Notes: generated from the letters alone by a model not told the origin. A stretch of 64,000 bases of DNA from Antedon mediterranea (GCF_964355755.1 NC_092672.1:7136441-7200440), one strand, 5' to 3'. Shown: positions 1 to 60,979, counted from the stretch's first letter. Program-made: numbers and translations.

Positions 1-1041
1 TTCAGCCACGTTTGCTTCACATCAATAGTTAACTTTTTTAACGCTATCGCAATTTGTAACATTAGAAAGTGCGCGCGTAAATGGCGTTTGAAATTTTAAA
101 ATGCTTCAAATCAATTTCTGATTAAATTAGAGCACGATTCAGGTCATTTTAAGCGTTTAAAAAATTGCCACTGGTGCGCACATTTTTACGCGCGCACGGC
201 GCAGGGAACAGGTATGAGCATTTCTTTTACACGATTTGTGTTTTTAAATCTTCTGTTAACAATTTTACGTTATTTTATTCACTTTTCAACTTGAAATGGC
301 GTTCTACGAGCACGTTAAACATGACAGGTTGCGCACGAAAACGTCAACAAATTGTGAAAATGTTCCAAAATATGTCTACTTTTAAAAATGACACAGTTCA
401 TCAGAATGCAAGGTTACCCCCATTTTTTATTTTAATTTCTTGCAGTGTATGAATCATAGGTCTGATTTATTATAGTGTTGAATGCTAAAACGTGTTTGAT
501 GGCTACATTATTTGCATATTAAATATAATTTTTGAAATATTTATCATCAAACAAACATAAACTTATTCAAAGAGCAAAACAATAAACATAACATTTATCT
601 TTTTTCTTTACATGTTAATATATAAAACTTGAAAGTATGTACTTTCATAAAATATCAGCGTTTAAAATTTTTGAAGATTTCATCATAGTAAAATTTATGA
701 TTTAAGTTTGATATGTAATAATCAACTTGCATCGAGGGGGTTCACGACATACCGAATGAACGAGGACTCTTTCTTCGGATTTTCGTCAGCAGGTGGTCAT
801 ATGGCTCGATGTGTAATGCAACCGACTTTGGTATCAGAGGTACCGGGTTCGAGTCCCGTCACGGGAAAACAATTAATTAAAAGGGTTTAGTTGGTTATTA
901 CACTGAGAGGGCAGTTTTAATTTTGAATAGCCTACTTTTTTTGGAAAAGTCATAACTTGGAAGTACTTGAATACGCAAGATACGCTTTGTTGCTGGCGGA
1001 TAACCAAACTCGTCCTCAAGTGACGAGTTTAAGTTCTAGTT
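1..1041 (+). repeat. Unit U0 (partial, diverged R2-type; left edge truncated by window)
   Basis: Shares R2 core (aaattagagcacg...ttttaagcgtttaaaaaattgcca...gcgcacatttttacgcgcgcac) and ends in hairpin ggataaccaaactcgtcctcaagtgacgagtt + CTAGTT. Confidence 0.6.
793..878 (+). repeat. tRNA-derived segment (tRNA pseudogene/SINE head) inside U0
   Basis: ggctcgatgtgtaatgcaaccgactttggtatcagaggtaccgggttcgagtcccgtcacggg: near-canonical T-arm GGTTCGAGTCC (B box) but no intact acceptor stem. Confidence 0.4.
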
Positions 1042-2565
1042 CTTCTTCTTTCTTTCTGTATGATTTTTGTGTAACGCTTTTCTCCAAAACTCGCAAACAT
1101 AACATTTCGGTAACTATGTTAACATTTTGACATTTATGTAACGTCGTCAGGCGAAGCTTTTCATGATGTTTACAATTGCGCAACGTGACGTACGCGCGAT
1201 TTAACGATTTTCTCGTATTTAACATATGTCTACAACCAAATAACATTTCAACTTGAAACTTTGCAAAAGTTTAATTTATATCATGCGCTAACTTTCTGTT
1301 GAAAAAAAATTGCGTGTTTTACATAAAGTTACGCGCGCACGCGCATTTAAAATTTCAAAATGCGCAAAATTAATTTATAATCAACTTTCTACGCGTTTCA
1401 TGTCGTTTTAAGCATGTCAAAAATTCCCACGCTTGCGCACATTTTTACGTGTGCGGTGCGCACGTAGCATTGAAAACGTATTTTTTTCGCGTGATTTATG
1501 TTTTTCCAGCCTTTTCTAGTAATTTTACCAAATTTTAAACAATTTCGACTTAAAGATACGTCATACGAGCACGTCCAATTGGACAATTTGCGCGCGTTTT
1601 TTATGAAAAGGTTAAAAAATTCGTTTAAAATATGTCTTTTTTTAAACAGTCGTAATTTCTAAACTAGACGGTCAAATTTTTGTGGATGACATATTCTGGA
1701 AGTAGATGAGTTGTAGATATCGGATCAGGTATTAATATGGCTAACCGGACATTGTGACGTCATCGTATGGCCACACGAACATAAAATTTAGGATTTTTGT
1801 ATCTTTCGTCATAGCTCATCACATTGAATAGAGCGCATCTCGACTTATCCGTTTTCCATTTTCCCCCCGATTTTGATAATGTCTAGGTCAATCAACTGTC
1901 TTTCGCATGAGTTAAAAATAATTTAATTTTTTTGACGTCATCATGCCTAAAAATTTAAATCACGTGTGGCATCAATTTCATCTTTACAGACAATTTTAAT
2001 CTGTTATAGCTCGTAAGAATAAAATGTGATAATCACGATTAAAACTTTTTCTGTAAGCTATTGGATTGTAGATACGAAATTATGTAAAAATGTTGCCAAT
2101 CGGATGTTGTGACGTCATCATATGGCCAGTTAAATGAAAAAGGTCGTATTTTCATCTTTTGCGTCATAATTCATTACATTTAAAAGAGCGCGCATCAATA
2201 TTTCACGTATTCAAATTTCTTCTACACGCTAATACGTTGTTGCTGAGATAATTTCCTTTCGGAATTGCTACCTTCGCGTTTCATTTTAAAACCGTCAACA
2301 TGTTAAAAATTGCAATAAATAGCGGGTCCCGTAATTTCACCTATTCTACACTGTATGTGATATGGATACAGGTTATACTGTGTATACTATATATGAATAT
2401 AAATAATAAAATTCAGCAATAACAACATATCATATTCTTCAGTTCAGGTCATAATGCCATAGTGAACACTTCCTTTTGTCCTCAACCTATCCCCTTAAGT
2501 TAATGTTGCACCACTTGCGCTGCGGATAACCAAACTCGTCAAAGTGACGAGTTACATGTCTAGTT
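1042..2565 (+). repeat. Unit U1 (R1 family, 1524 bp)
   Basis: 3' palindrome gcggataaccaaactcgtcaaagtgacgagtt + acatgtCTAGTT; internal direct duplication of a ~180 bp segment (1690-1860 vs 2040-2230). Confidence 0.7.
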
Positions 2566-4136
2566 GGTTATCCGCAACGAAGTTGCAGGATAACCTCTTG
2601 TGATTGTACGAAATCATTCTGTATGATTTTTGTGTAACGCTTTTCTCTAAAACTCGCAAACATAACATTTCGGTAACTATCTTAACATATTGACATTTAC
2701 GTAACGTCGTCAAGCGAAGCTTTTCATGACGTTTACAATTGCGCAACGTGACTTACGCGCGATTTAACGATTTTGTCGTATTTAACATAGCTCGACAACC
2801 AAATAACATTTCAACTTGAAACTTTGCAAAAGTTTAATTTATATCATGCGCTAACTTTCTGTTGAAAAAAAATTCCGTGTTTTACACAAAGTTACGCGCG
2901 CACGCGCATTTAAAATTTCAAAATGCGCAAAATTAATTTCTAATCAACTTTCTACGCGTTTCATGTCGTTTTAAGCATGTCAAAAATTCCCACGCGTGCG
3001 CATATTTTTACGTGTGCGGTGCGCACGTAGCATTGAAAACGTATTTTTTTCACGTGATTTATGTTTTTCCAGCCTTTTCTAGTAATTTTACAAAATTTTA
3101 AACAATTTCGACTTAAAGATACGTCATACGAGCACGTCGAATTGGACAATTTGCGCGCGTTTTTTATGAAAAGGTTAAAAAATTTGTTTAAAATATGCCT
3201 TTTTTAAAACAGTCGTAATTTCTAAACTAGACGGTCAAATTTTTGTGGATGACATATTCTAGAAGTAGATGAGTTGTAGATGTCGGATCAGGTACTAATA
3301 TGGCTAACCGGACATTGTGACGTCATCGTATGGCCACGCGAATATAAAATTTAGGATTTTTGTATCTTTCGTCATAGCTCATCACATTGAATAGAGCGCA
3401 TCTCCACTTATCCGTTTTCCATTTTCACCCCGATTTTAATATTGTCTAGGTCAATCAAGTATCTTTCGCATGAGTTAAAAATATTTTAATTTTTTTGACG
3501 TCATCATGCCTAAAAATTTAAATCACGTGTGGCATTAATTTCATCTTTACAGTAAATTTTAATCTGTTATAGCTCGTAAGAATAAAATGTGATAATCACG
3601 ATTAAAACTTTTTCTGGAAGCTATTGGATTGTAGATACAAAATTATGTAAAAATGTTGCCAATCGGATGTTGTGACGTCATCATATGGCCAGTAAAATAA
3701 AAAAGGTCGTATTTTCATCTTTTGCGTCATAATTCATTACATTTAAACGAGCGCGCATCAATATTTCACGTATTCAAATTTCTTCTACACGCTAATACGT
3801 TGTTGCTGAGATAATTTCCTTTCGGAATTGCTACCTTCGCGTTTCATTTTAAAACCGTCAACATGTTAAAAATTGCAATAAATAACGGGTCCCGTAATTT
3901 CGCCTATTCTATGTATGTCACTGTATGTGATATGGATACAGATTATACTGTGTATACTATATATGAATTTAAATAATAAAATTCAGCAATAACAACATAT
4001 CATATTCTTCAGTTCAGGTCATAATGCCAACGTGAACACTTCCTTTTGTCCTCAACCTATCCCCTTAATGTTAATGTTGCACCACTTGCGCGGCGGATAA
4101 CCAAACTCGTCAAAGTGACGAGTTACATGTCTAGTT
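2566..4136 (+). repeat. Unit U2 (R1 family, 1571 bp) with 5' motif GGTTATCCGC and 3' GCGGATAACC (terminal inverted motifs)
   Basis: 5' ggttatccgcaacgaagttgcaggataacc palindrome; 3' gcggataaccaaactcgtcaaagtgacgagttacatgtCTAGTT. Confidence 0.7.
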
Positions 4137-5549
4137 TATTTATTCTTTCCTTAGCACTATTTTGTCCGTGCATTATCTTGGCATCAGTTTCATCTAGCTA
4201 AGTCAAGTTTTCAGAGTATATTCCTTATGGCCAGGAATCGATGTGGTTATATTTTCACGATGCGTAATCAAAAATTACGCGGTCTACGCGCGATTTTACG
4301 AAATCACGTTTGTAATCATATCTTCACAAGCATGAATCACAATTAAACAAAATTTGGTACTCATAAATTTCAGGTCATATTTCATCATATGGCAATTAAA
4401 TTACGTGCGTAGCGCATATAACGCTTGCGTACGCGCGCTTAAAATGTTCAAAATTGTCAAAATTTATTTTCGATGAAATTAGAGTACGTTTCAGGCAATT
4501 TTAAGCGTTTAAAAAATTGCCATGAGTGCGCAGATTTTTGCACGCGCACTGCGCGTTAAACGTTAATGCGCACTCTTTTTGCCCGATTTCTGTTTTACAA
4601 TCTTTCTTTAATAATATCATCATATTTGATTCAGGTTTCAACTCGAAATTGCGTTATACGAGCACGTCAAAAGTGACTGGCTACGCACGTATAAGTTAAC
4701 AAAATGGTGAAAATATGCTAAATTTTAAAATTAATATATATCGTCAGAATGCAGGGGAACACCTATTTTTTATTTCATTTTCTTGAAGTGTATGTATCAT
4801 ATGTATGATTTATTATCAAATTAAGAGAACAAAAGTTGATTAAGTCATCATTAATTGCATATTAAATTAAAAAAACATAATTTCGACAATCAAACAAATT
4901 ATGACATTTTCTTAGGCCAAAATAACAAACTTAACATTAACTTTCTTCCTTCAAAAATTCATATATTAAAGTTAAAAGTATGTAGTTTGACAGTGCATCA
5001 TTTGTATACATTTTAAAGATGTCATCATAGTAAAAAATTATAATTCATTTCAGTATGTAATAATCTATTTGCATCAAAGTGGTTACTGCATAGTAAATAC
5101 ACGGAGGAATTTTTCTACAACTTTTAGTCAGTTGTGTACGGCTCGGTGGTCTGTGCTCGTGTCTATGGCATTCAAGGTACCGAGATCGAGTCTCACCTTG
5201 GGAAACGAAATAAGATTTTTTTTTTATTATCCGTATTGTTTGTTCAAATTTATTTCTTAGTGTATAGATTATACACATGATTTATAATGAAATCTAGATA
5301 AAAATTTACTTATGTCTTTATTATTATGTAACAACAAATGTGGTTTATGACATTATACGCATATGGATCTTTGATCGGATTGTGATACCGGCTATGGTGT
5401 TCGCGTTAGCAAGGTCCTATCATATATTATAAATAATTAAAGATTCTGAGAAAATCAATCAATCAATATATCTTTTAAAAATCAATTATCTTTATTTAAA
5501 TCAATGCATATAACCTATAATTCGTCATAGTGACGAATTAAATCTAGTT
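4137..5549 (+). repeat. Unit U3 (R2 family, 1413 bp)
   Basis: Starts tatttattctttccttagcac, ends cataacctataattcgtcatagtgacgaattaaatCTAGTT. Confidence 0.7.
5122..5230 (+). repeat. tRNA-derived Pol III-like module with T-run in U3
   Basis: tagtcagttgtgtacggctcggtgg (A-box-like) ... ggtaccgagatcgagtctcacc (B-box-like) ... gggaaacgaaataagaTTTTTTTTTTT. Confidence 0.45.
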
Positions 5550-6971
5550 TATTTATTTATTCTTTCCTTAGCACTATTTTGTCCGTGAATTATCTTGATA
5601 TCAGTTTCATCTATCTAAGTCAATTTTTCAGAGTATATTCCTTATGGCCAGGAATCGATGTGGTTATATTTTCACGATGCGTAATCAAAAATTACGCGGT
5701 CTACGTGCGATTTTACGAAATCACGTTTGTAATCATATCTTCACAAGCATGAATCACAATTAAACAAAATTTGGTACTCATAAATTTCAGGTCATATTTC
5801 ATCATATGGCAATACAATTACGTGCGTAGCGCATATAACGCTTGCGTACGCGCGCTTAAAATGTTCAAAATTGTCAAAATTTATTTTCGATGAAATTAGA
5901 GTACGTTTCAGGCAATTTTAAGCGTTTAAAAAATTGCCATGAGTGCGCAGATTTTTGCACGCGCACTGCGCGTTATACGTTAATGCGCACTCTTTTTGTC
6001 CGATTTCGGTTGTACAACCTTTCTTTAATAATATCATCATATTTTATTCACTTTTCAACGCGTAATTGCCTTATACGAGCACGTCAAAAGTGACAGGCTA
6101 CGCACGTGTAAGTTAACAAAATGGTGAAAATATGCTAAATTTTAAAATTAATATAGATCGTCAGAATGCTCGGGAACACATATTTTTTATTTAATTTTCT
6201 TGAAGTGTATGTATCTTATGTATGATTTATTATTAAACTAAGGGAACAAAAGTTGATTAAGCCATAATTAATTGCATATTAAATTAAAAAAAATTCATTT
6301 CGACAATCAAACAAATTATGACATTTTCTTAGGCCAAAATAACAAACTTAACATTAACTTTCTTCCTTCAAAAGTTCATATATTAAAGTTAAAAGTATAT
6401 AGTTTGACAGTGCATCATTTTTGTACATTTTTAGAGATGTCATCATAGTAAAAAATTATAATTCATTGCGGTATGTAATAATCTATCTGCACCAAAGTGG
6501 TTACTGCATAGTAAATACACGGAGGAATTTTTCTACAATTTTTAGTCAGTTGTGTATAGCTCGGTGGTGTGTGCTCGTGTCTATGGCAATCAAGGTACCG
6601 AGATCGAGTCTCACCTTGGGAAACGAAATAAATTTTTTTTTTTATTATCCGTATTGTTTGTTCAAATTTATTTCTTAGTGTATATATTATACACATGATT
6701 TATAATGAAATCTAGATAAAAAATAACTTATGTCTTTATTATTATGTAACAGCAAATGTGGTTTATGACATTATACGCAGAGGGATCTTTGATCGGATTG
6801 TGATACCGGCTATTGTATTCGCGTTAGCAAGGTCCTATCATATATTATATATTATTTAAAGAATCTGAGAAAATCAATGAATCAAAATATCTTTTAAAAA
6901 TAAATTATCTTTATTTTAATTATCAATGCATATAACCTATAATTCGTCATAGTGACGAATTAAATCTAGTT
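5550..6971 (+). repeat. Unit U4 (R2 family, 1422 bp)
   Basis: Near-identical to U3/U5; same terminal palindrome aattcgtcatagtgacgaatt + CTAGTT. Confidence 0.7.
6541..6648 (+). repeat. tRNA-derived Pol III-like module with T-run in U4
   Basis: Same module as 5122-5230. Confidence 0.45.
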
Positions 6972-8392
6972 TCTTTATTTATTCTTTCCTTAGCACTATT
7001 TTGTCCGTGAATTATCTTGATATCAGTTTCATCTATCTAAGTCAATTTTTCAGAGTATATTCCTTATGGCCAGGAATCGATGTGGTTATGTTTTCAGGGT
7101 GCGCAATCAAACATTACGCGGTCTACGCGCGATTTAACGAAATCACGTTTGTAATCATATCTTCACAAGCATGAATCACTTTTAAACAAAATTTGGTACT
7201 CATAAATTTCAGGTCATATTTCATCATATGGCAATACAATTACGTGCGTAGCGCATATAATGCATGCGTACGCGCGCTTAGAATGTTGAAAATTGTCAGA
7301 ATTTATTTTCGATGAAATTAGAATACGTTTCAGGCAATTTTAAGCGTTTAAAAAATTGCCATGAGTGCGCAGATTTTTGCACGTGCACTGCGCGTCAAAC
7401 GTTAATGCGCACTGTTTTTGTCCGATTACTGTTGTATAACCTTTCTTTAATAATATCATCATATTTTATTCACTTTTCAATGCGAAACAGCGTTATACGA
7501 GCACGTCAAAAGTGACAGGCTACGCACGTGTAAGTTAACAAAATGGTGAAAATATGCTAAATTTTAAAATTAATATATATCGTTAGAATGCTCGGGAACA
7601 CCTATTTTTTATTTAATTTTCTTGAAGTGTATGTATCATATGTATGATTTCTTATCAAATAAAGAGAACAAAAGTTGATTAAGTCATCATTAATTGCATA
7701 TTAAATTAAAAAAAAATAATTTCGACAATCAAACAAATTATGACATTCTCTTAGGCCAAAATAACAAACTTAACATTAACTTTCTTCCTTCAAAAATTCA
7801 TATATTAAAGTTAAAAGTATGTAGTTTGACAGTCCATCATTTGTATACATTTTAAAGATGTCATCATAGTAAAAAATTATAATTCATTTCGGTATGTAAT
7901 AATCTATTTGCATCAAACTGGTTACTGCATAGTAAATACACGGAGGAATTTTTCTACAACTTTTAGTCAGTTGTGTACGGCTCGGTGGTCTGTGCTCGTG
8001 TCTATGGCATTCAAGGTACCGAGATCGAGTCTCACCTTGGGAAACGAAATACGAATTTTTTTTTTTATTATCCGTATTGTTTGTTCAAATTTATTTCTTA
8101 GTGTATAGATTATACACATGATTTATAATGAAATCTAGATAAAAATTAACTTATGTCTTTATTTTATTATGTAACAACAAATGTGGTTTATGACATTATA
8201 CGCATATGGATCTTTGATCGGATTGTGATACCGGCTATGGTGTTCGCGTTAGCAAGGTCCTATCATATATTATAAATAATTAAAGATTCTGAGAAAATCA
8301 ATCAATCAATATATCTTTTAAAAATCAATTATCTTTATTTAAATCAAGGCATATAACCTATAATTCGTCATAGTGACGAATTAAATCTAGTT
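6972..8392 (+). repeat. Unit U5 (R2 family, 1421 bp)
   Basis: Same structure, terminal palindrome + CTAGTT at 8387-8392. Confidence 0.7.
7962..8067 (+). repeat. tRNA-derived Pol III-like module with T-run in U5
   Basis: Same module. Confidence 0.45.
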
Positions 8393-10029
8393 AGGTTATA
8401 TGCATTATCATGCATATAACCTCTTGATTCTGTCAAAATCTTTATTAGTTATCCGCATTTAGCGGATAACTCCTTGTAACTGTCCTGTGTCTTTTTTTTT
8501 TTTTTCATTATTCTTCAGTCTTTCTCCCTCACTTTTTGTGCAGAGCGTATCTCTAAAATGGGTAAACATAACATTTCATAACTTTGTCAACATATGGGCA
8601 TTTACGTGAAGTTGTGCACCTCCTATTTTTGAATGACGTCATAGTTACGCAACGTGACTTACGCATGATTTTATGATTTTTTTAAATTGATCATAGATAT
8701 AAAACCAAGTGTAATTTTTTTTTGTACACTTTGTGAAAATTTAAGTCATATCAAGGGCAAACTTTTTGTGCACAAAAAATGGCATGTTTTACAAGAAGTT
8801 ACGCGCGCACGCGCGTTTAAAATTTTATAATGCGAAAAATCAATTTCTAATTAATTTTCTACGCGTTTCTTGTCATTTTGAGCATGTCAAAAATTCCCAC
8901 GCATGCGCAAATTTTTACGGGCGCGGTGCACACGTAGCGTTAAAAACATACTTTTTCCACGTGATTTATGTTTTTTCAGCCTTTTCTAGTAATTTTAACA
9001 ACTTTTAAACAATTTCGACTTAAAATTACGTCATACGAGCACGCCGAATTGGATAATTTGTGCGCGTTTTTGATGAAAAAGTTAACAAATTCGTCAAAAT
9101 AAAGCATTTTTTTAAACAGTCGTAGTTTCTAAACTAAACGGTAAAAATTATTTTTATTACATATTCTGGAAGTTGATGAGTTGTAGATATCGGATCATGC
9201 TTTAAAATGGCTAACCGGACATTGTAACGTCATCGTATGGCCACACGAATATAAAATATAGGATTTTTGTATCTTTCGTCATAGCTTATCAGATTTAATA
9301 GAGCGCATCTCCACTTATCCGTTTTTCATTTTCACTTTGATTTTTATATTGTCTAGGTCAATCAATTTTCTTTCGCATGAGTTAAAAATATTTTAATTTT
9401 TATGACGTCATAATGTCTAAAAATGTAAATATCCCGGGTCACATATTTTCATCTTTACAGTAAATTTTAATCTGTTATAGCTCGTCAGAATAAAAAGTGA
9501 TAATCATGATTACAACGTTTTCTGGAAGCTATTGGATTGTAGATACGAATTCATGTAAACATTTTGCCAATCGAATGTTTTGACGTCATCATATGGTCAG
9601 CTGAATAAAAAAAGTCATATTTTCATATTTTGCGTAATAGTTCATCACATTTAAAAGAGCGCGCATCTATATTTTACGTATTTAAATTTCTTCTACACAT
9701 TAATATGTGGTTGCTGATATAATTTCCTTCCGAATTTGCTATCTTAGTGTTTCATTTTGATACCGTCGCCATGTTAAAAATTGGAATAAAGAGCGGGTCC
9801 CGTAATTTCACCTATTCTTCACTGTATGTGATATGTATACAGATTATACTGTGTAACTATACTATGACACAAAATAACAGAATTCAACACTAACAACATA
9901 TCATATTCATCAGTTCAGGTCATAATGCCATAATCTTTTTCTGTGTGCAATATTCCAACGTATGACGTGCACGTGGCGTTTGTCGTGCGGATAACTAACT
10001 CGTCAAAGTGACGAGTTTCATGTCTAGTT
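8393..10029 (+). repeat. Unit U6 (R1 family variant, 1637 bp)
   Basis: 5' palindromes ggttatatgcattatcatgcatataacc and agttatccgcatttagcggataact; 3' gcggataactaactcgtcaaagtgacgagtttcatgtCTAGTT. Confidence 0.7.
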
Positions 10030-11609
10030 AGTTATCCGCTTAGTAGCGGATAACTCCTTGTAATCGTCCTGTTTCATCAAATTTTTTTTTTTCTGTATTA
10101 TACTTCTTTCTTTCTGTCATTTTTGTGCGTCGCGTTTCTCTAAAACGTGTAAACAGAACATATCGTAACTTTGTCAACATATCGACATTTACGTGAACTT
10201 GTGCACCTCCTATTTTTGAATGACGTCAGAGTTGCGCAACGTGACTTACGTGCGATTTTATGAATTTCAATGATTGATCATAGACTAAAAACCAAACATA
10301 ATTTTGTTTTGAAACTTTGTGAAAATTTAAGTCATATCAAGCGCAAACTTTCTATGGATTAAAAATAGCATGTTTCACAAAAAGTTACGCGCGCACGCGC
10401 GTTTAAAATTTTAACGTGCGAAATATTAACTTCTAATCAACTTTCTATGCGTTTCATGTCATTTTGAGCATGTCAAAAATTCCCACGCGCGCGAACATTT
10501 TTACGCACGCGGTGCACACGTAGCGTTAAAAACATATTTTTTTCGCGTGATTTATGTTTTTTCAGCCTTTTCTAGTAATGTTACCAAATTTTAAACAATT
10601 TCGACTTAAAATTACGTCATACGAGCACGTCGAATTAGATAATTTGCACGCGTATTTGGTGAAAAAGTTAAAAAATTCGTCAAAATTATGCCTATTTTTA
10701 AACAGTCATAGATTCTAAACTACATGGAGAACTTTTTTTTAATTACATATTCTGGAAGTTGATGAGTTGTAGATATCGGATCATGCATTAATAAGGCTAA
10801 CCGGACTTTGTGACGTCATCGTATGGCCACGCGAATATAAAATAGAGGATTTTTGTCTATTTCGTCATAGCTCATCACATTTAATAGAGCGCATCTCCAC
10901 TTATTCGTTGTCCATTTTCATTCCGATTTTAATATATTCTAGATCTATCAACAATCTTTTGCATGAATTAAAAATTTTTTAATTTTGTTAACGTCATCAT
11001 GCCTAAAAATTTAAATTACGTTGGTCATTAATTTCATCTTTACAGTAAATTTTAATCAGTTATGCCTCGTAAGAATAAAATGTGATAATCACAATTAAAA
11101 CGTTTTCAGGAAGCTATTGTATTGTAGATACAAAATCATGTGTAAATTGTGCCAATCGAATGTTGTGACGTCATCATATGGCCAGTTAAATAAAAAAAGT
11201 CGTATTTTCATCTTTTGCATTATATTTCATTACATTTAAAAGAGCGCGCATCAATATTTCACGTATTCAAATTTCTTCTACACGTTAATACGTTGTTGCT
11301 GAGATAATTTCATTCAGAAATTTCTACTTTTACATTTCATTTTGAAACCGTCAAGATGTTAAAAATTACAATAAAATACGGGTCCCGTAATTTCACCTAT
11401 TTTACACTGTTTGTGATATGTATACAGATTGTACTGTGTATACTATATGACACAAAATAACAGAATTCAGAAATAACATATCATATTCTTCAGTTCAGGT
11501 CATAATGCCTTAATATTTTTCTGTGTGCAATATTCTAACGTATGACGTGCACGTGGCGTTTGTCGAGCGGATAACTAACTCGTCAAAGTGACGAGTTTCA
11601 TGTCTAGTT
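10030..11609 (+). repeat. Unit U7 (R1 family variant, 1580 bp)
   Basis: 5' agttatccgcttagtagcggataact palindrome; 3' hairpin + CTAGTT at 11604-11609. Confidence 0.7.
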
Positions 11610-13028
11610 TATTTATTCTTTCCTTAGCACTATTTTGTCCGTGAATTATCTTGATATCAGTTTCATCTATCTAAGTCAATTTTTCAGAGTATATTCCTTA
11701 TGGCCAGGAATCGATGTGGTTATATTTTCACGATGCGTAATCAAAAATTACGCGGTCTACGCGCGATTTTACGAAATCACGTTTGTAATCATATCTTCAC
11801 AAGCATGAATCACAATTAAACAAAATTTGGTACTCATAAATTTCAGGTCATATTTCATCATATGGCAATACAATTACGTGCGTAGCGCATATAACGCTTG
11901 CGTACGCGCGCTTAAAATGTTCAAAATTGTCAAAATTTATTTTCGATGAAATTAGAGTACGTTTCAGGCAATTTTAAGCGTTTAAAAAATTGCCATGAGT
12001 GCGCAGATTTTTGCACGCGCACTGCGCGTTATACGTTAATGCGCACTCTTTTTGTCCGATTTCGGTTGTACAACCTTTCTTTAATAATATCATCATATTT
12101 TATTCACTTTTCAACGCGTAATTGCCTTATACGAGCACGTCAAAAGTGACAGGCTACGCACGTGTAAGTTAACAAAATGGTGAAAATATGCTAAATTTTA
12201 AAATTAATATAGATCGTCAGAATGCTCGGGAACCCATATTTTTTATTTAATTTTCTTGAAGTGTATGTATCTTATGTATGATTTATTATTAAACTAAGGG
12301 AACAAAAGTTGATTAAGCCATAATTAATTGCATATTAAATTTAAAAAAATTCATTTTGACAATCAAACAAATTATGACATTTTCTTAGGCCAAAATAACA
12401 AACTTAACATTAACTTTCTTCCTTCAAAAGTTCATATATTAAAGTTAAAAGTATATAGTTTGACAGTGCATCATTTTTGTACATTTTTAGAGATGTCATC
12501 ATAGTAAAAAATTATAATTCATTGCGGTATGTAATAATCTATCTGCACCAAAGTGGTTACTGCATAGTAAATACACGGAGGAATTTTTCTACAATTTTTA
12601 GTCAGTTGTGTATGGCTCGGTGGTGTGTGCTCGTGTCTATGGCACTCAAGGTACCGAGATCGAGTCTCACCTTGGGAAACGAAATAATTTTTTTTTTTTT
12701 ATTATCCGTATTGTTTGTTCAAATTTATTTCTTAGTGTATATATTATACACATGATTTATCATGAAATCTAGATAAAAAATAACTTATGTCTTTATTATT
12801 ATGTAACAGCAAATGTGGTTTATGACATTATACGCAGAGGGATCTTTGATCGGATTGTGATACCGGCTATTGTATTCGCGTTAGCAAGGTCCTATCATAT
12901 ATTATATATTATTTAAAGAATCTGAGAAAATCAATGAATCAAAATATCTTTTAAAAATAAATTATCTTTATTTTAATTATCAATGCATATAACCTATAAT
13001 TCGTCATAGTGACGAATTAAATCTAGTT
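11610..13028 (+). repeat. Unit U8 (R2 family, 1419 bp)
   Basis: Near-identical to U4; terminal palindrome + CTAGTT. Confidence 0.7.
12596..12701 (+). repeat. tRNA-derived Pol III-like module with T-run in U8
   Basis: Same module. Confidence 0.45.
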
Positions 13029-14432
13029 TATTTATTCTTTCCTTAGCACTATTTGTCCGTGAATTATCTTGGCATCAGTTTCATCTATCTAAGTCAATTT
13101 TTCAGAGTATATTCCTTATGGCCAGGAATCGAAGTGGTTATGTTTTCACGATGCGCAATCAAAAATTACGCGGTCTACGCGTGATTTAACGAAATCACGT
13201 TTGTAATCATATCTTCACAAGCATGAATCACAATTAAACAAAATTTGGTACTCATAAATTTCAGGTCATATTTCATCATATGGCAATACAATTACGTGCG
13301 TAGCGCATATAACGCATGCGTACGCGCGCTTAAAATGTTGAAAATTGTCAGAATTTATTTTCGATGAAATTAGAGTACGTTTCAGGCAATTTTAAGCGTT
13401 TAAAAAATTGCCATGAGTGCGCAGATTTTTGCACGTGCACTGCGCGTCAAACGTTAATGCGCACTGTTTTTGTCCGATTACTGTTGTATAACCTTTCTTT
13501 AATAATATTATCATATTTTATTCACTTTTCAACGCGAAACAGCGTTATACGAGCACGTCAAATGTGACAGGCTACGCACGTGTAAGTTAACAAAATGGTG
13601 AAAATTTTAAAATTAATATATATCGTTAGGATGCTCGGGAACACCTATTTTTTATTTAATTTTCTTGAAGTGTATGTATCATATGTATGATTTATTATGA
13701 AATTAGAAGAACAAAAGTTGATTAAGTCATCATTAATGGCATATTAAATTTAACAAAATTAATTTCGACAATCAAACAAATTATAACATTTTCTTAGGCC
13801 AAAATAACAAACTTAACATTAACTTTCTTCCTTAAGAAGTTCATATATTAAAGGTAAAAGTATATAGTTTGACAGTGCATCATTTTTTTTCAATTTTTAA
13901 AGATGTCATCATAGTAAAAAATTATAATTCATTGCGGTATGTAATAATCTATCTGCACCAAAGTGGTTACTGCATAGTAAATACACGGAGGAATTTTTCT
14001 CCAACTTTTAGTCAGTTGTGTATGGCTCAATGGTCTGTGCTCGTATCTATGGCATTCAAGGTACCGAGTTCGAGTCTCACCTTGGGAAACGAAATAAGAT
14101 TTTTTTTTTATTATCCGTATTGTTTGTTCAAATTTATTTCTTAGTGTATAGATTATACACATGATTTATAATGAAATCTAGATAAAAATTAACTTATGTC
14201 TTTATTATTATGTAACAACAAATGTGGTTTATGACATTATACGCATATGGATCTTTGATCGGATTGTGATACCGGCTATGGTGTTCGCGTTAGCAAGGTC
14301 CTATCATATATTATAAATAATTAAAGATTCTGACAAAATCAATCAATCAATATATCTTTCAAAAATCAATTATCTTTATTTAAATCAATGCATATAACCT
14401 ATAATTCGTCATAGTGACCAATTAAATCTAGT
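13029..14432 (+). repeat. Unit U9 (R2 family, 1404 bp; last unit, array ends at CTAGTT)
   Basis: Ends aattcgtcatagtgaccaattaaatCTAGTT followed by unrelated sequence ggatattgaaatac. Confidence 0.7.
14007..14110 (+). repeat. tRNA-derived Pol III-like module with T-run in U9
   Basis: Same module. Confidence 0.45.
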
Positions 14433-17117: not shown

Positions 17118-17831
17118 TCAGTTGAGTGCGTTTAAAAATTCTGTTCTACGTTTAAATGAAAAAAATAAATATTTTCCAAGTTTAACAATAAGATCAGAAT
17201 TTGTGGCAGACATAAGATAAATATATTTTAATTTAGTTGGGTTGTTTGTATAAAAGGAAAACATATATTTAGTTCTAATATCTGAATAAAATGGACAAAC
17301 TAAAGTGAAATGATATTCATCTTCAATTGATTGTAAAGCACATAATTTGCATAATCTTTCATTTCTATTTATACAATTCCATCTTCCTTTTTCAATTTCT
17401 AATTCTAAAATTCCTAGTCGTATCTTAGTCATAATTTGTCTATGTTTGTAATTTGTTACTTTTGTTAGATATTCTTCAATTCCAAACTTATATTTAATGT
17501 GCTTGTAATATTGGAGCTTAGAGTGTAGCCTAGTATCTTCGTAGAATTTCTTTCGTTCAATGTCTGTAAGCCTTTGTTTAAAATTTGAAATAAAAGTATA
17601 TATATTATTAACCTGTTGTGAGTACCATATGTTACCAAATCCATTTATGCATAGTATTTGTTTTACGTCATTGGCCCAACATTGCTCATTTCTTTGAGCT
17701 TTTCTATATTGAAAATCATAACATTGTTTAATAAATTTGTCATTATCCATTTGGATTACTCTTAGCCAATAACGAATTATATTAATGATAATTTGAATTT
17801 GGATAGTGAATCTTCCACATTCTCCTCTCAC
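17118..17831 (-). pseudogene. LINE ORF2 C-terminal fragment with CCHC motif
   Basis: ...GILELEIEKGRW...CKLCALQSIEDEYHFTLVCPFY (CX2CX10HX5C). Confidence 0.55.
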
Positions 17832-17849
17832 TGCAACACTTGGTGCAGA

Positions 17850-18645
17850 ATTACCTATAATAATAATAATAATAAATGAAAACTTATATAGCGCCGGTAT
17901 CCTCCACCCATGTGGCGCTCATGGCGCTTTGTGCATTAACAACGTGCGAGAACATCAGCGAATAGCGACGTCTTTAGGTTGGTCTTGAAACTGTTTAGAC
18001 TAGTTGAGCATTTAACTGTTGCTGGTAAGCTGTTCCATACACTTGCGGCCGCAACGTAAAAAGATCTCTGACCCCACTGATTTTTCGCTCTACGCTCTTG
18101 AAGAAGGTTTTGTGACAATGATCGTAGGCCTCTGCGGGATGATTCGTAACGATCCACAAGGTCAGATAAATAAGCAGGAGCACTGTCATTTAGGATCTTG
18201 AATACAAACAACGCAAGTTTGTACTTAATACGTTGTTGAACAGGCAACCAATGCAAATCCATCAGGACAGGAGTTATGTGAGCGTTTGATTTTGTATAAG
18301 TTACAATTCTAGCTGCCATATTTTGCAAGCGCTGCAAACGTTGTATTTGAGATTTTGGTATGCCAAACAACAAGGCATTACCAATGTCAATTTTAGAAGT
18401 GACAAATGAGTGTACAATCAATTCAGCTGTTTTCTTGTTAAGATTACCGCGAATACGACCAAGGTTCCTAATCGATATGCATGCTGCTTTGGATACAGTT
18501 GTTATTTGTGCTTCCATAGTGAGATTACTATCCAGCATGATTCCCGGATTCCGGACCACCGATGAGGGAGCGATGTTAGAGTTTCCGATTCTGATATGTG
18601 TGATGTTGATTTTGGAGATGTTACATTTAGACCCGACGATAATAA
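17850..18645 (-). mobile_element. Nested 5'-truncated CR1/L2-clade LINE 3' fragment with (ATT)n tail, inserted inside the L1-like element
   Basis: ORF 17936..18559(-) carries the CR1/L2 C-terminal signature (...LQRLQNMAARIVT...HITPVLMDLHWLPV...RIKYKLALFVFK...APAYLSDL...RGLRS...RSFYVAAASVWNSLP...FKTNLKTSLF); plus strand shows (aat)n aaatgaaaacttatatagcgcc at 17855-17890, i.e. the element tail. Confidence 0.6.
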
Positions 18646-19334
18646 ATTCCTAGAATGTATTTACAGAATCTTAGATGAACTTTCTCTAATACTGATATAT
18701 CATTTAAACCCCATATTTCGCTACCATAAAGTAAGATTGGCATAATCTTAACATCAAATATATGGTTCCATATATTAACTTGGAGGTTACCAAAACGCCT
18801 ATGGGTCAATCCTTTTAATGTGAACAAAGCCTTATTAGCTTGTTGACAATTGTATTTTTTGGCTTTATTCCAATTACCATTTGAGTTGAAAACAACTCCT
18901 AAATATTTAAAGGATTTGACAATGTCAACTGTATTTCCATTGTAATTCCATTTTTCAAATTTGTTAAGATTACCACCATTCTTAAACACCATAATATTAC
19001 TCTTGTTAACATTGACAGTTACATCCCATCTTGTACAATAGGTAGATAACTTGTTTAAATAATATTGTAGACCATAAACGGTATCACCAAATAACATAAG
19101 GTCATCTGCATAGAGTAAATGATTAATTTTTAGATTTCCTATTTGGATTCTATGCTCGTCGCCTTCCTCATTTAATGTTTCACTCAAATCATTAATAAAA
19201 ACATTAAATAAAAAGGACAAGAGTGGCGAACCCTGTTGTATACCTATTAGACATTTGAAAGAATTACTAATGTTGCCGTCGACCTTAACATGTGCTGATA
19301 ACTTATTGTACATTGAATTAATAACGTTTAACAT
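18627..19334 (-). pseudogene. LINE ORF2 RT core fragment (domains 4-7, YADD)
   Basis: GIQQGSPLSFLFN ... LLYADDLMLFG ... KYLGVVF ... LLYGSEIWG. Confidence 0.65.
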
Positions 19335-19384
19335 TTTTCCTTTTACTCCTGAATTTTTTAGTTTTATGTGAAGATATTGATGTC

Positions 19385-21301
19385 CTACGGAGTCAAAGGC
19401 TCGTTTAAAATCAATGAAAGCAACAAATACTTTCCCACGTTTTTTCCTAGGTATTTATTAATGATTGTGTTAAGAATAAATACATTTTCCGATGTTCTGA
19501 ACCCCTTTCTAAAACCGGCTTGTTCCTGATGTAGAATGTTATTATCTTCTGCCCAAAATTGTAATCTTTTATTAATAATATGTAAGAAAATTTTAGCAAA
19601 AACAGGAATAAGTGATATTCCTCTATAATTCTCTGGTTGTTCTTTGTCACCTTTTTTAAATATTGGGACAATAAGACTGGTTGCCCATTGCTGTGGAAAC
19701 TGTCCTGTATTATAAATTATATTATATAATTTTGTTATTAGATTGATTACATTTTGAGATGAGTGTATAAAAAGTTCTGGTAATAATCCATCGATTCCAG
19801 GTGATTTACCTGTTTTTTGGGATTTAATGGCATGAATTACCTCATCTACTGTAATGTCATTATTTAGGTTAGGTTCGTTTTCATTTACAGCAGGTTCATC
19901 ATTAATGATACTTTCTACATTTTGATTATCTCTATTTTCATTATTATGAAATAAGGATTCGAAGTGAGTGCGCCATGTATTAATACATATGTTACTTGGA
20001 AAATTTGGTTTTGTTTGTTTTAGTTTAATCCAGAATGATTTGGAGTTTTTTTCTCCTAATGATCTAATCAATTCTGTACGTGATCTTTTAATATAGCTGT
20101 ATTTCTTATTTTTTATTAATGTTTTATATTCTTTTTTTATTTCCAGGTATGCATTAAGCAATGTTTGTGTACGATTGTGTCGGAATCTATTTAAACTTCT
20201 TCGAACTTTGTTTTTAAGTGCAAGACATTGATTGTCATACCACGTGTCTTTAGCTTTAGTTGTTTTATTGTTGGATTTCCTATGGATAATTCCTTTACAT
20301 GCATATTCATACAATCTACCTACAGTTGAAACAGCTTCATCAATTAGGTTATCATTAATCAAGTTAGTTATTTCATTTTTAAGTTCATCGATTTTATTAT
20401 GCTGTAATCTTAATTTAAATGTTTCAGTATATGTTTCTGACCAATTGAATTTAGTTTGTTTGGGACAATTTTCAATATTTAATTTTTTTATTTTTATATT
20501 ATCTTTAGTTAGTAGGCCTAATTGAAACGTAATTGGCATATGATCAGATTCTATTCTATTTTCTACTTTCAAATCTGCTATGTACCTGAAGTTATCAGCT
20601 TTTGTCAATATATAATCGACTACGCTTTTGCCTTGTTGTCCTATGAAAGTGTAGCTTTTACTATACATTGGGTTAATTCTGCCAGTAGCAATTCTTACAT
20701 TCGTTTCTTTACAAAAATTGAGAAGATCTATGCCATAATTATTCGTGACGTCATCTTCATTAATTCTAATTGTTACATTATCTTCATCATCTTCAATATA
20801 TAATTCGTTATCCCAATCTATTGGGCATACATCGTTGTTGACATAATCCAATAAATCTCCTGTTTTACCATTGAAGTCTCCAACAATGAATATTTGATTT
20901 TTATTATTATATTTATATAAATATTCAGCGTATTCGTTTGTAAGTATTTCATATAAATTGTTATTATTAGCATATGGGGAGTGTTGTGGTGGTCTGTAAA
21001 CTACAGCCATTATTATAGAATCGTTCTCCGTTTTGATTCGTAACCACATAATATACTTAGATAAGCTAGGTAATTCTTTAACTTTGATATTAGTTTTATA
21101 ATATATCATAATTCCACCTGTATTTCTACCACGGTGTTGTAACTTTTCTTGCATTTTACTTATACAATTATATCCCTTAATATAGTAGTCATCACTAAAA
21201 GTTGTCCAAGTTTCAACCAAACATATTACATCGAAATCACAAATAAATTTTATAAATTCACAATCACTAAAATTACTTTTTAAACCATTTATATTCCACA
21301 C
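19385..21301 (-). pseudogene. LINE ORF2 N-terminal part: APE-type endonuclease + RT fingers/palm
   Basis: MWNINGLKS... (APE EN), ...FIVGDFNGKTG..., RT motifs ...PGIDGL...; interrupted downstream. Confidence 0.65.
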
Positions 21302-21610
21302 AATAGTCTTTAAAGAGGTGGACGTGTAAATACTTTTACTTATATTTTTATTTGTAACATTGGTATATATATTGTTATTATTGACGTTGTTATTCCTATT
21401 ATTAACGTCGGCGTTTATGTTATCGTTATCTATACCATTAGTTTGACCATTATTAGTTGTATTGTCAATATTTTCTTTTTCATGATTTTCGTTATTATTC
21501 TCACCTTTATTATTATTATTATTGTCATTTACGTCATTATCAACAATTGTACCAATAATATTATTACATTTGTTGTTTATTTGATATGTGTTTGGGCCAT
21601 GGCCGGACCC

Positions 21611-22267
21611 CTATCTAGGTTTATATCTACTATACTTAACTACTTTATCATTATCTATATCATATGTAAAAGTTTCGTCATCAATAATGAGTTTATCGTA
21701 TCTTATTTTGAACGGTTTTCCGCTTTTAATAGCTTCATCTATTTTTGGTTGTAAATTTTTTCTGATCTTACGAACTCTTGCTGTGTAATCTTCGCTGATA
21801 GTAATTTGTTTCCTTCTTTCACCCCGGTCTTCATTTTTGTTCATTTTTCGACGTTGTGTTCTACTTGCTTTTAGAACATTTTCTTTAGTTTTGTAATCTT
21901 TGAATTTCACAATGATCGGTCTCGGTTTAAATCTTGCGTTGAGCCTATGTGCCCTCTCAATCTCAATATTCTCCCCACCAATACCGAGATCATTTGTAAA
22001 GTGTTCTTTTACTTTCTTCTCACTCTGATCCCAATTCTCATGTTCGCTATCTACCACTCCATATACTATTAAGTTGTTACGTCTGCTTTGACCTTCAATT
22101 TTGTCTATATGTTTGATTAATTGTAAGTTCATTGTTTTAAGTTGTTGATTTTCTTCTTCTATTATTGTCATTCTTTCGTTTAGTGAGTCCATGTTGCTAT
22201 TTAGTGTATCAATTTTTTCTTTTACGCTTTTAACATCTCCTGAAATGTCATCCATTTTCTTATTCAA
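21611..22267 (-). CDS. LINE ORF1 (coiled-coil + L1 ORF1/Transposase_22-like RRM region)
   Basis: ...RRNNLIVYGV...IEIERAHRL...RPIIVKFKDYKTKENVLKASR matches L1 ORF1p core pattern. Confidence 0.65.
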   Translation of the reverse strand: MNKKMDDISGDVKSVKEKIDTLNSNMDSLNERMTIIEEENQQLKTMNLQLIKHIDKIEGQSRRNNLIVYGVVDSEHENWDQSEKKVKEHFTNDLGIGGENIEIERAHRLNARFKPRPIIVKFKDYKTKENVLKASRTQRRKMNKNEDRGERRKQITISEDYTARVRKIRKNLQPKIDEAIKSGKPFKIRYDKLIIDDETFTYDIDNDKVVKYSRYKPR

Positions 22268-23725: not shown

Positions 23726-24317
23726 ATGCAAGGCTCTTCGGTTTATTTCAGATTCAACCTTGTATCCCGATCCAACTTTGTACCCAGATTCAACCTCGTA
23801 TCCAGATACAACCTTATATCCAGTTTCAACTTCATATCCACATTCGACCTTTTATCCAGATACAACCTCATATCAAGATTCAATCTCATATCCAGATACA
23901 ACATCATATCCAGATACAACCTCGTATCCAGATACAACCTCAAATCAACATTCAACATCATATCTAGATACAACCTCGTATTCAAATTCAATCTCAAAGC
24001 CAGATTCAACCTCATATCTAGATTCAATCTCACATCTAGATACAACCTCGTATCCAGATTCAACCTCGTATCCAGATACAACCTTATATCCAGATACAAC
24101 CTCATATCAAGATCCAATATCATATCCAGATACAACATCATATCCAGATACAACCTCATATCCAGATACAACCTCAAATCCTCATACAACTTCATATCCA
24201 GATTCAATCTCATATCTAGATACAACTTGGTATCCAGATTCAAACTCATATCCAGATTCACCCTGGTATCTAGATCCAAGCTCATATTCAATATTTTCTT
24301 CAGAATATTATTACTCT
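23726..24317. repeat. 18-bp minisatellite (~33 copies, consensus tatccagatacaacctca)
   Basis: Direct reading; unit is a multiple of 3 and lacks stops, so all six frames appear open (ORFs 23726..24379, 23760..24398, 23743..24291 are repeat artefacts). Confidence 0.9.
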
Positions 24318-35563: not shown

Positions 35564-36632
35564 AATATCTGATGATTATTCATTTTGCTGTTTGTTGGAA
35601 GATGTTGGTTTTAACGACGTTGACTGTACGCCAGATGCAGACGTGTTTTCATCATGTGACAATCTTATGCAGAATGTGTACCTTAGAGCTTTCTTATGGT
35701 TGTTTGGACTGAGTGCACTTCTTGGAAACAGTTTTGTAATCTTATGGCGATGGATAAATTGGCCTGCAAAGAAAAGTCCATCTTACACACAATCGTTTCT
35801 AATTACTAATCTTGCAGTTGCCGATATGCTTATGGGGTTGTATATGTTGATCATTGCCAGTGCCGATTCCTACTATCGGGAAGATTACGTCACACATGAT
35901 AGCGAATGGAAGGCCAGTCGAATATGTACGCTTGCAGGAATCTTAGCCTTTCTATCCAGTGAATCGTCTGTGTACACTTTAACCGTCATTAGCTGCGACA
36001 GGTTTTTGCACATTGCATTTCCATTTCGCCGTTTTCATCTTACACAAGAAACAGTAAAATTTGCAGTGGCTGTAGGATGGTTTCTGACCCTCTTCACGAG
36101 TATTCTTCCAGCATTACCAATCCCGTACTTTAACAATGAGTATTACGGTGTCACCAGCGTGTGTCTTGCATTGCCATTAACGTCGGAAAAAGTGAGAGGT
36201 TGGGAATATACCGCTGCGATTTTTATAGGTTTTAATTCGTTATGCTTCTTGCTAATTTTTGTTTGTTATTCAGGTGTGTTCATTTTAATAAAGATATCGA
36301 GTAGTAAAGTAAATCAAGCAGGAAACATGAATTCTGACAAGAATAAGCACATTGCAATTGCTATACGAATGGCTGTTATTGTCGCTACTGACTTCTGCTG
36401 CTGGGTACCCATCATAATAATGGGTATTTTATCATTGACAACATCTGTTAACATACCCGCCACGGTATATGCCTGGGCTGCAGTCTTCATTTTGCCAATA
36501 AATTCAGCAATTAACCCATACTTATATACAATAGCATCTTTAAAGAAACTTCAAAGGCAACTAAAACCTTCTAAACATGTATCAGAAAGTATGCCAGCTA
36601 CGGAAAGAATAAATGTGAAAATTGGTACGTAA
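35564..36632 (+). CDS. Mosaic receptor large exon: LRR C-terminal cap + rhodopsin-type 7TM (LGR-like), to stop TAA (or alternative donor at 36624/36625)
   Basis: Acceptor agttttttcatttcAG; ISDDYSFCCLLEDVGFNDVDCTPDADVFSSCDNL then 7 hydrophobic helices; CDRFLHIAF (DRY-like) after TM3; NPYLY in TM7; ORF 35592..36632. Confidence 0.85.
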
Positions 36633-59519: not shown

Positions 59520-59884
59520 AACAGAAGCTACTACAGTGTACTACTAGGCCTATTTGTTGAATGTAAGGATACTACTGGAACTCTCTGAAATTAAAATAGG
59601 ACATTCTATATAAGTAAACACAAGGAAAATCATAATAAACAAAACCTTTTTTATTAATAAGAAATAAGGAGGAATAAATAGGATAGATAAAAGGATAAAT
59701 AATAGCTTCTGTACAGTAGTAGCCGCCATGTTTCATAGGTGCGAGGACACGTGTATGAATAGATAAGAAAAACCGGACATAGAGACAATGCAGTTTAATA
59801 CATATTTTTAGTATATTGTTTATTGATATGTGGTTCAACAAGCACATGGAAATAGAAAGTCTGATCTGTGTATTATACGAATAA

Positions 59885-60070
59885 AGGGCCTTTCACACCT
59901 GTTCCGGCACGGTTCCGGTCCGGCGAATCGAACGCCAATGTTTCGTTTTCACGACGCTCCACGCGGCCAAGCACCAATTGATATGCGCGTAGCCGCGTAA
60001 AAACAAAACATTGACGTTCGATTGGATTTGCCGTCGCCGGACCGGAACCGTACCGGAACAGGTGTGAAAG
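59885..60070. mobile_element. GC-rich MITE-like element with ~35-bp TIRs
   Basis: tttcacacctgttccggcacggttccggtccggcg ... cgccggaccggaaccgtaccggaacaggtgtgaaag. Confidence 0.6.
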
Positions 60071-60979
60071 ATCCTTAACGCTGTTCTCCGTGTAATAAAA
60101 CGATAATAAACACATAAATAATGTAGTTTTGAGAGATTTAATACGTATAGTTTTACTAGTTACTGTCCAACAGTACAAAAATGTACATCCGGGAAACAAA
60201 CAATAACTGAGAGTCAAATATCTCAAAAGCAAACGTTTTGTTAAAGAATTAGTAAGTTAAGACTAAAATAAAGTTGTTCAAATTCCAGTCACCAGTGGCA
60301 AAATTAGATAGATTATTGAGTATAATGAAGGTATTCAAAGCGTTTTAATGTAAATGTTTTTAATACTTTAATTCGTATTATATAGTTGTTTGGTAATTAT
60401 TATAACAACATGTGTGAATATTTCAATAATACAATTATGAATGATACTGCAGAATTATGTCCCAGCTACTTAACTTCACATTATTGTGCTTTGAGGAAGC
60501 GACAGACCTTTCCTACCTTCCCTATATTTTTTGAAAGATCAACCGTTTCTGGACGATAGAGACGAAGAAGGCGGTAATTTCAACAGACCGTGACGAATCG
60601 AATGTGTACACATATTATGAAATTACTGGAAATTTATTTACGGAGAAGAATGATAAAAAGCCGTCCCACCAACCGCCGAGATATAGGCAATTGTTTGAAT
60701 TTGTTGAAAACACGCTGTTATTCCATGAAATAGAACTGTGTTATAACATACAATAACATTTGTTTCTTTTAAGTACAGTGTAATCAGGGAAGATACCTAA
60801 TGATTAAATGCAATGCAGTCAAATAAGCATCTCTCAGAACAGCAGTGCAGTCACAAATAAGCGAGACGTGTCAAAACTAAGCGGGTAATAAATACATTTT
60901 ATATATTACTGATAATATGCTTAAACACGTTAAATTCAGTTTACAATTTAGTTCAAATGTTGATCATGTACGGTGGTAG

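Follow-up and report, generated by a model that had tools for sequence, protein, structure and literature searches.

The analysis presented here suggests that repeat units at the start of a 64,000-nt stretch of Antedon mediterranea DNA (GCF_964355755.1 NC_092672.1:7136441-7200440, hereafter the window) carry the relic of a decayed tRNA gene, which probably lay on the 3′ margin of an ancestral HINE segment and was multiplied passively together with the unit. The relic is a module of ~73 nt (tRNA positions 1-73) that is present on the + strand of five out of five units of the R2 type, with a diverged homologue in the unit U0. According to the reading that we favour, a piece of a decayed nuclear tRNA gene, running from position 1 to 73 and into a short trailer, would have joined a Helentron-type HINE prior to the divergence of U0 and R2, either by capture or by a flanking insertion, and its later copies would have arisen passively, together with those of the 1.4-kb unit, during the head-to-tail growth of the array. 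The oligo-T terminator of the tRNA gene would have offered a natural Helentron target. The A and B box remnants would still be recognisable because they are the slowest-decaying and best-recognisable parts of a tRNA, with no upkeep as a gene.

The array occupies positions 1-14432 of the window and consists of ten head-to-tail repeat units, all on the + strand: U0 (1-1040, its 5′ side cut off by the window start), R1a (1041-2564), R1b (2565-4135), R2a (4136-5548), R2b (5549-6970), R2c (6971-8391), R1c (8392-10028), R1d (10029-11608), R2d (11609-13027) and R2e (13028-14432). Every unit has a subterminal repeat, a hairpin and then CTAGT as its 3′ end, and all junctions between units are T-rich (CTAGT followed by T). 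No copies of the family were found in the 64-kb window outside 1-14432. Since the five R2 units are 94.6-99.4% identical to each other, their modules are best counted as one ancestral event plus U0, not as six independent occurrences. The closest pair, R2b (5549-6970) and R2d (11609-13027), reached 99.4% identity against 94.6-96.4% for the other R2 pairs, which suggests that a block was recently duplicated or converted inside the array. The sole segment common to the R1, R2 and U0 families is a GC-rich core of ~245 bp with GCGCGC-type inverted repeats (84-337 in U0, 1335-1578 in R1a, 2898-3141, 4427-4671 in R2a, 8805-9043 and 10391-10634). This core shows 67-71% identity across the families, includes the best-conserved U0-R2 blocks (up to 88%) and may be the conserved ‘core’ of DINE-1-type elements. 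Each R1 unit also has an internal direct duplication of ~126-143 bp with ~71% identity (1711-1836 versus 2066-2191 in R1a, and the same in R1b-d).

In HINEs, the 5′ subTIR lies beside the end and a short complementary IR comes after it; on the 3′ side, the distance to the end is 38-60 nt for the subTIR and 8-35 nt for the palindrome (PMC4067079). On sequence grounds, we assign the array units to the non-autonomous Helentrons (HINEs) because their complementary subTIRs, IR, hairpin and CTAGT ends match this published anatomy. The R1 units show GGTTATCCGC or AGTTATCCGC as 5′ subTIR, GCGGATAACC or GCGGATAACT as 3′ subTIR, and the palindrome ACTCGTCAAAGTGACGAGT ahead of the terminal CTAGT. The R2 units end with the 3′ subTIR GCATATAACCT and the palindrome AATTCGTCATAGTGACGAATT, then AAATCTAGT, and the R2 5′ subTIR AGGTTATATGC occurs once, at 8394. 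In R1b, GGTTATCCGC at 2566 pairs with GCGGATAACC at 4094; similarly, AGGTTATATGC at 8394 pairs with GCATATAACCT at 5506 and in the other R2 units, where the subTIRs are complementary at 11 of 11 positions and the 3′ subTIR begins ~43 nt from the end. The complementary IR was found as GCAGGATAACC (2586), GCATATAACCT (8412) and GCGGATAACT (8462 and 10046), and the palindromes ACTCGTCAAAGTGACGAGT and AATTCGTCATAGTGACGAATT lie 9-12 nt before the end. The sole R2-type left end of the array, T-AGGTTATATGC-ATTATCAT-GCATATAACCT, is located at 8392..8445 on the + strand, and the other, inner R2 copies lack it. R1c and R1d appear to have been inserted at a T-rich site between this left end and the body of R2d, so that R2d would be the sole full-length R2 copy. 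Two consecutive HINE left ends are found at 8392-8480, AGGTTATATGC with its IR GCATATAACCT and then AGTTATCCGC with its IR GCGGATAACT. With 1.4-1.6 kb (~1.4 kb for R2), the array units are long for HINEs.

No autonomous Helentron ORF (Rep/helicase/endonuclease) was found in the window, the only transposon ORFs being those of an L1-type LINE. This element (17118-22267, minus strand), which comprises an ORF1-like RBD, an endonuclease and a reverse transcriptase, has been fragmented into five ORFs and encodes proteins with a best database identity of ~30%; a GC-richer, unrelated segment lies within its region at ~17880-18650. The window also contains a single long exon (35592-36632) for the 7TM part of a GRL101-like (LGR-type) GPCR, with best matches to proteins of the crinoids Antedon mediterranea (71%) and Anneissia japonica (64%), and an array of an 18-nt unit at 23749-24287 (~29.5 copies with higher-order periods of 36 and 54, then (TAC)14), across which long ORFs are open on both strands.

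The tRNA-like module was located at 795..867 in U0, 5132..5204 in R2a, 6550..6622 in R2b, 7971..8043 in R2c, 12606..12678 in R2d and 14016..14088 in R2e, always on the + strand, and no such module was found in the R1 units. An earlier note on this DNA had described the module with its T run in five R2 units and a homologue in U0, and all six of its + strand sites exist. The whole module can be aligned among the five R2 units and, at lower identity, with U0 793-878. Within it, the 22-mer GGTACCGAGATCGAGTCTCACC is exact at 5176, 6594, 8015 and 12650 and has one mismatch at 14060, for a chance expectation of none. We searched for the promoter boxes with the consensus TRGCNNARTGG for the A box and GGTTCGANNCC for the B box, placed 30-60 nt apart. 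The A-to-B spacing was 44 nt in the six copies, which corresponds to the distance from tRNA position 8 to 52, and the A box in this register reads YRGCTCRRTGG (5139-5149 in R2a). The element TAGTCAGTTG (5125-5134), found in five out of five R2 units and previously taken for the A box, lies upstream of the tRNA register. U0 carries the A box TGGCTCGATGT at 802 (two mismatches) and the B box GGTTCGAGTCC at 846-856 (none), R2a carries CGGCTCGGTGG at 5139 (two) and AGATCGAGTCT at 5183 (three), and R2e, the best-preserved R2 module, carries TGGCTCAATGG (none) and AGTTCGAGTCT (two); the A box has one mismatch in R2b and R2d and two in R2c, and the B box has three in each of these units. The B-box invariants G53, T55, C56, A58 and C61 were kept in 6/6 copies. 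The changes T54A and A14G are present together in four of the five R2 copies, and a perfect A box together with T54 has been retained in R2e only.

In order to establish the origin of the module, we compared it with tRNA models built from 22 annotated E. coli class-I tRNAs and with seven published human sequences, no echinoderm tRNAs being used. An nhmmer search with the profile of the 22 tRNAs matched U0 812-863 without gaps to tRNA positions 18-69 (17 bits, E 2.4e-4), and this was the sole significant match of the profile in the window, the next one having an E of 20. The U0 stretch 835-861, which comprises the variable loop and T arm, shared 25 of 27 bases with human tRNA-Arg-UCU, a match that is largely generic T arm, and R2e could be aligned to the same tRNA almost end to end. 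The U0 22-mer AGGTNCCGGGTTCGAGTCCCGK, again variable loop plus T arm, occurs at no fewer than 120 prokaryotic loci (at least), and 106 out of its 125 occurrences in prokaryotic genomes fell within tRNA genes called by ARAGORN. An ungapped PSSM of tRNA positions 8-43, from which the T arm was excluded and whose register was set by the B box, ranked U0 first among 127,930 window positions, with the R2 copies between ranks 39 and 1133. A and B boxes with two or fewer mismatches in total were found in the window in U0 and R2e only, both with a spacing of 44, and the simulated expectation of such pairs was 0.007-0.03 per window (0.007 at a spacing of 42-46). A custom covariance model, run unfiltered on both strands, placed U0 first (12.6 bits, E 0.21) and R2e second (10.5 bits, E 0.83); the R2 copies scored up to 10.5 bits, level with a chance match at 59.9 kb (10.4 bits). 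The source of this chance match is a palindromic MITE-like element at 59884-60076, whose 56-nt arms are 84% complementary and stand 81 nt apart. The R2 copies were weakly tRNA-like by themselves. We regard the module as tRNA-derived because of the nhmmer E value, the first rank in the PSSM, the match to Arg-UCU and the at least 106 tRNA-gene loci that share the 22-mer, as the earlier note had proposed. Its view that U0 is better preserved agrees with the top nhmmer, PSSM and covariance-model matches of this unit and with the GGTTCGAGTCC T-loop at 846-856. Since the Arg-UCU match is largely generic T arm, it would not name the parent isoacceptor; Gln and Pro tRNAs were also considered as parents and rejected, their published sequences giving a resemblance no better than that of Arg-UCU.

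As a gene, the module has decayed. ARAGORN called no tRNA genes, and when its thresholds were relaxed, U0 appeared among 9 noise matches at 85% and R2d and R2e among 100 at 75%. At the Rfam gathering thresholds, no tRNA or SINE match was obtained in the whole window, and the custom model gave 10-13 bits only, so the covariance-model check put forward in the earlier note came out negative. A search of four short stretches against Rfam with E values up to 10 gave no tRNA match and recovered only the 15-nt T arm of U0, via tmRNA, mascRNA and YrlA. The cloverleaf cells were paired in 59% of cases versus 29-52% in slid controls, with the acceptor and anticodon stems essentially lost. Predicted folds showed no extra stability over shuffles (z between -0.1 and +0.5), and RNAalifold returned no cloverleaf, only one compensatory pair in a small hairpin at positions 60-72. 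Among the R2 units, 8 out of 73 sites were variable in the module versus 9.3% of those elsewhere in the unit (p 0.55), a test of low power with five near-identical R2 copies and one outgroup. Only one variable site fell in the 3′ 40 nt of the module, and the identity between U0 and R2 was 60% in the module versus 69% in the rest of the shared segment. The module shows no sequence constraint and changes at the same rate as the unit around it. The missing Rfam and ARAGORN calls, the 59% cloverleaf pairing, the fold z values near zero and the unit-like rate of evolution speak for a sequence that is no longer a tRNA gene. From this we infer that the module has no function at present.

The module of each R2 unit is followed by a T run on the + strand, of 10 T in R2a (5216..5225), 11 T in R2b (6633-6643) and R2c (8056-8066), 13 T in R2d (12688-12700) and 10 T in R2e (14100-14109), which begins 9-12 nt past tRNA position 73. 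The earlier note had described a trailer, GGGAAACGAAATAAGA, ahead of 10-13 T; this trailer is exact in R2a and R2e only and the other three R2 units differ from it, with trailers that end in AAATAAAT, AAATACGAA and AAATAAT. These runs raise the question of Pol III transcription, which would be possible in principle and best in R2e. Under this explanation, each R2 unit would be transcribed by Pol III from its A and B boxes into an RNA of ~85-90 nt ending in the T run, and the array would be a battery of Pol III genes or of TFIIIC-bound sites. The A boxes with 0-2 mismatches, the 44-nt spacing and the B-box core intact in all copies are consistent with it, as are the oligo-T at 9-12 nt after position 73 and the combination, in R2e, of a perfect A box, T54 and a terminator-like T run. 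However, we consider it unlikely, given that the module is unconstrained and four copies have T54A fixed, that neither a stable nor a conserved fold was detected and that U0, which has the best boxes, lacks a nearby terminator, no T run being found within 47 nt of its module. Runs of nine or more T or A are also common in the window (36 in 64 kb), and the R2 T run appears to lie at an element boundary. Straight after it comes TTATCCG, the core of the HINE 5′ subTIR (5227..5233, 6645, 8068, 12702 and 14111), and because of this 5′-subTIR-like motif the run need not be a Pol III terminator. According to published Helentron biology, poly-T targets are preferred and variable T strings occur at element ends. 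The most plausible reading of the R2 T run is that of a poly-T string, of the kind that Helentrons seek as a target and bear at their termini; this boundary reading makes use of two short motifs, one 7-mer and one 11-mer, that were recognised post hoc. In this respect, the Pol III-like character attributed to the module in the earlier note held for the A and B boxes at tRNA spacing and for the oligo-T, but the T run itself can be explained by a Helentron boundary, without Pol III. The run may have originated as the oligo-T terminator that belonged to the tRNA gene and that attracted the downstream element.

In a related proposal, an animal Helentron lineage would have taken up an entire tRNA gene including its terminator, and this piece would have become functional for the element, either as a T-arm/acceptor hairpin plus T string acting as a rolling-circle stop and poly-T landing pad that favours head-to-tail array growth, or as a Pol III promoter from which each unit is transcribed separately. 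We hold this to be distinctly unlikely. If true, such a functional capture would provide the first clear example of a Helentron that took up a non-coding RNA gene and put it to use.

The position of the module within the units also bears on its history. The homology between U0 and R2 runs from U0 84 to ~878 with 69-71% identity and ends right after the module; downstream, the similarity was not significant, since 48% of shuffles scored as high. At 888..898 on the + strand, 20 nt past the module, U0 carries TAGT/TGGTTAT, an 11-mer with only two occurrences in the window, the other one being the junction between R1a and R1b at 2561. The site has the appearance of a HINE 5′ end joined directly to a CTAGT-type end and would mark a relic element boundary. 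The adjoining 149 bp of U0 (892-1040) resemble a separate miniature R1-type HINE, whose 5′ end carries TGGTTAT and whose 3′ end carries GCGGATAACC followed by a palindrome and CTAGT. The module is located at the 3′ edge of the segment common to U0 and R2, and in both lineages the start of another HINE-like piece comes next.

This arrangement lends itself to another explanation, in which the tRNA-derived hairpin was the 3′-terminal palindrome or stop of an ancestral HINE (U0a type) that was bypassed in R2 and fused to the downstream HINE piece. Indeed, the U0 hairpin TCCCGTCACGGGA ends 25 nt before TTTAGT/TGGTTAT, within the 8-35 nt published for HINE palindromes (PMC4067079), it is kept in R2 as TCTCACCTTGGGA with one compensatory pair, and the U0-R2 homology ends just past it; the same idea has been raised for the Arabidopsis tRNA-Cys Helitron-like tandem units (PMC10701932). 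However, with only 5 bp the stem is shorter than those of the R1 and R2 termini (8-9 bp), a single compensatory change separating two lineages carries little weight, and the U0 5′ end falls outside the window. Just upstream of the module no palindrome of a canonical HINE 3′ end was found, nor was a matching 3′ subTIR upstream of the hairpin. Altogether, we judge this origin of the hairpin to be quite improbable.

The earlier note had also suggested a SINE captured by the rolling-circle element, and a tRNA-derived SINE head, inserted into the element or captured by it, would account for promoter boxes that are better kept than the stems and for acceptor and anticodon stems that are almost gone, as in SINE heads. 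Nevertheless, neither a body nor a tail was detected, and repeat and nhmmer comparisons revealed no other copy of the module in the 64-kb window. The oligo-T on the sense strand would end a SINE transcript, and no Rfam SINE or tRNA-like family matched beyond the T arm. A SINE is not supported by these results and we regard this origin as very unlikely. Searches for a second module copy in the R2 tail yielded no significant similarity, and a minus-strand retroposon with the T run as its poly-A was rejected for the same reason. An exact-pattern scan for the R2 module in viral and metagenome contigs gave 0 matches, and no related element was present in one 26-kb locus of Anneissia japonica. Finally, a chance likeness of AT-rich repeat DNA to tRNA motifs, which would fit the lack of matches at Rfam gathering thresholds and the detection of the modules by ARAGORN only at noise levels, is scarcely credible in view of the nhmmer E of 2.4e-4, the 25/27 identity to a real tRNA, the independent 5′ half ranking 1 of 127,930 and the A/B pair expectation of 0.007 per window.

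The reading as a passively multiplied tRNA-gene relic can be placed among known systems. Rolling-circle transposons (Helitrons/Helentrons) capture host gene fragments and, to our knowledge, their reported cargo is almost always protein-coding, the single tRNA case under discussion being one from Arabidopsis in which the Helitron ends are doubtful. The module is a new example of this known type of event, capture, in an under-studied animal group, and as such a modest finding. Like a eukaryotic tRNA gene or pseudogene, it has A and B boxes with 44-nt spacing, a variable loop, a T arm and oligo-T ~10 nt downstream, but it differs from a tRNA gene in that it gives no cloverleaf or covariance-model call and has lost the acceptor and anticodon stems. 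Its position 48 is A, which was never found in the 106 real tRNAs that share AGGTNCCGGGTTCGAGTCCCGK. With tRNA-derived SINEs it shares a degenerate tRNA-like head with promoter boxes, but no body, tail or dispersed copies were seen in the window and a T run follows the head. In repeat annotation, such relics are open to being mistaken for SINE heads or tRNA pseudogene clusters. Pol III oligo-T terminators, for their part, may be natural landing sites for poly-T-seeking Helentrons.

The closest structural relatives of the array units are the HINE/DINE-1-like elements, a group to which the Tsp elements of sea urchins have been referred (Thomas et al. 2014, PMC4067079) and which includes Cg_HINE of the Pacific oyster (PMC7492417). 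The units resemble them in having a 5′ subTIR at a distance of 1-2 nt from the end with a short complementary IR behind it, a 3′ subTIR at ~43 nt and a palindrome ~10-12 nt from the end, T-rich boundaries, no coding capacity and a tandem or nested arrangement. In contrast, they differ in their length of 1.4-1.6 kb, in the inner R2 copies without a left end and in the tRNA-derived segment of R2 and U0; the term ‘tRNA’ occurs 0 times in PMC4067079 and PMC7492417. A tRNA-Cys cluster with Helitron-annotated 0.4-kb tandem units has been described on chromosome 5 of Arabidopsis thaliana (PMC10701932). Both systems have a tRNA sequence near the 3′ end of each head-to-tail rolling-circle-type unit, together with a CTAG motif in each unit. 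The authors of that study consider the tRNA either as cargo or as a terminator, disturbed or alternative, and point out that a tRNA carried by a Helitron would be without precedent as non-coding RNA cargo (PMC10701932). The Arabidopsis tRNA-Cys genes are intact and mostly expressed, and the Helitron identity of their units is doubtful, since prediction tools found none (PMC10701932). In contrast, the units of Antedon mediterranea have canonical Helentron/HINE ends, and their tRNA is decayed and fails all gene tests. This combination of canonical HINE ends with tRNA-derived cargo shows that, in an echinoderm, such elements can harbour Pol III-type sequences and increase their number.
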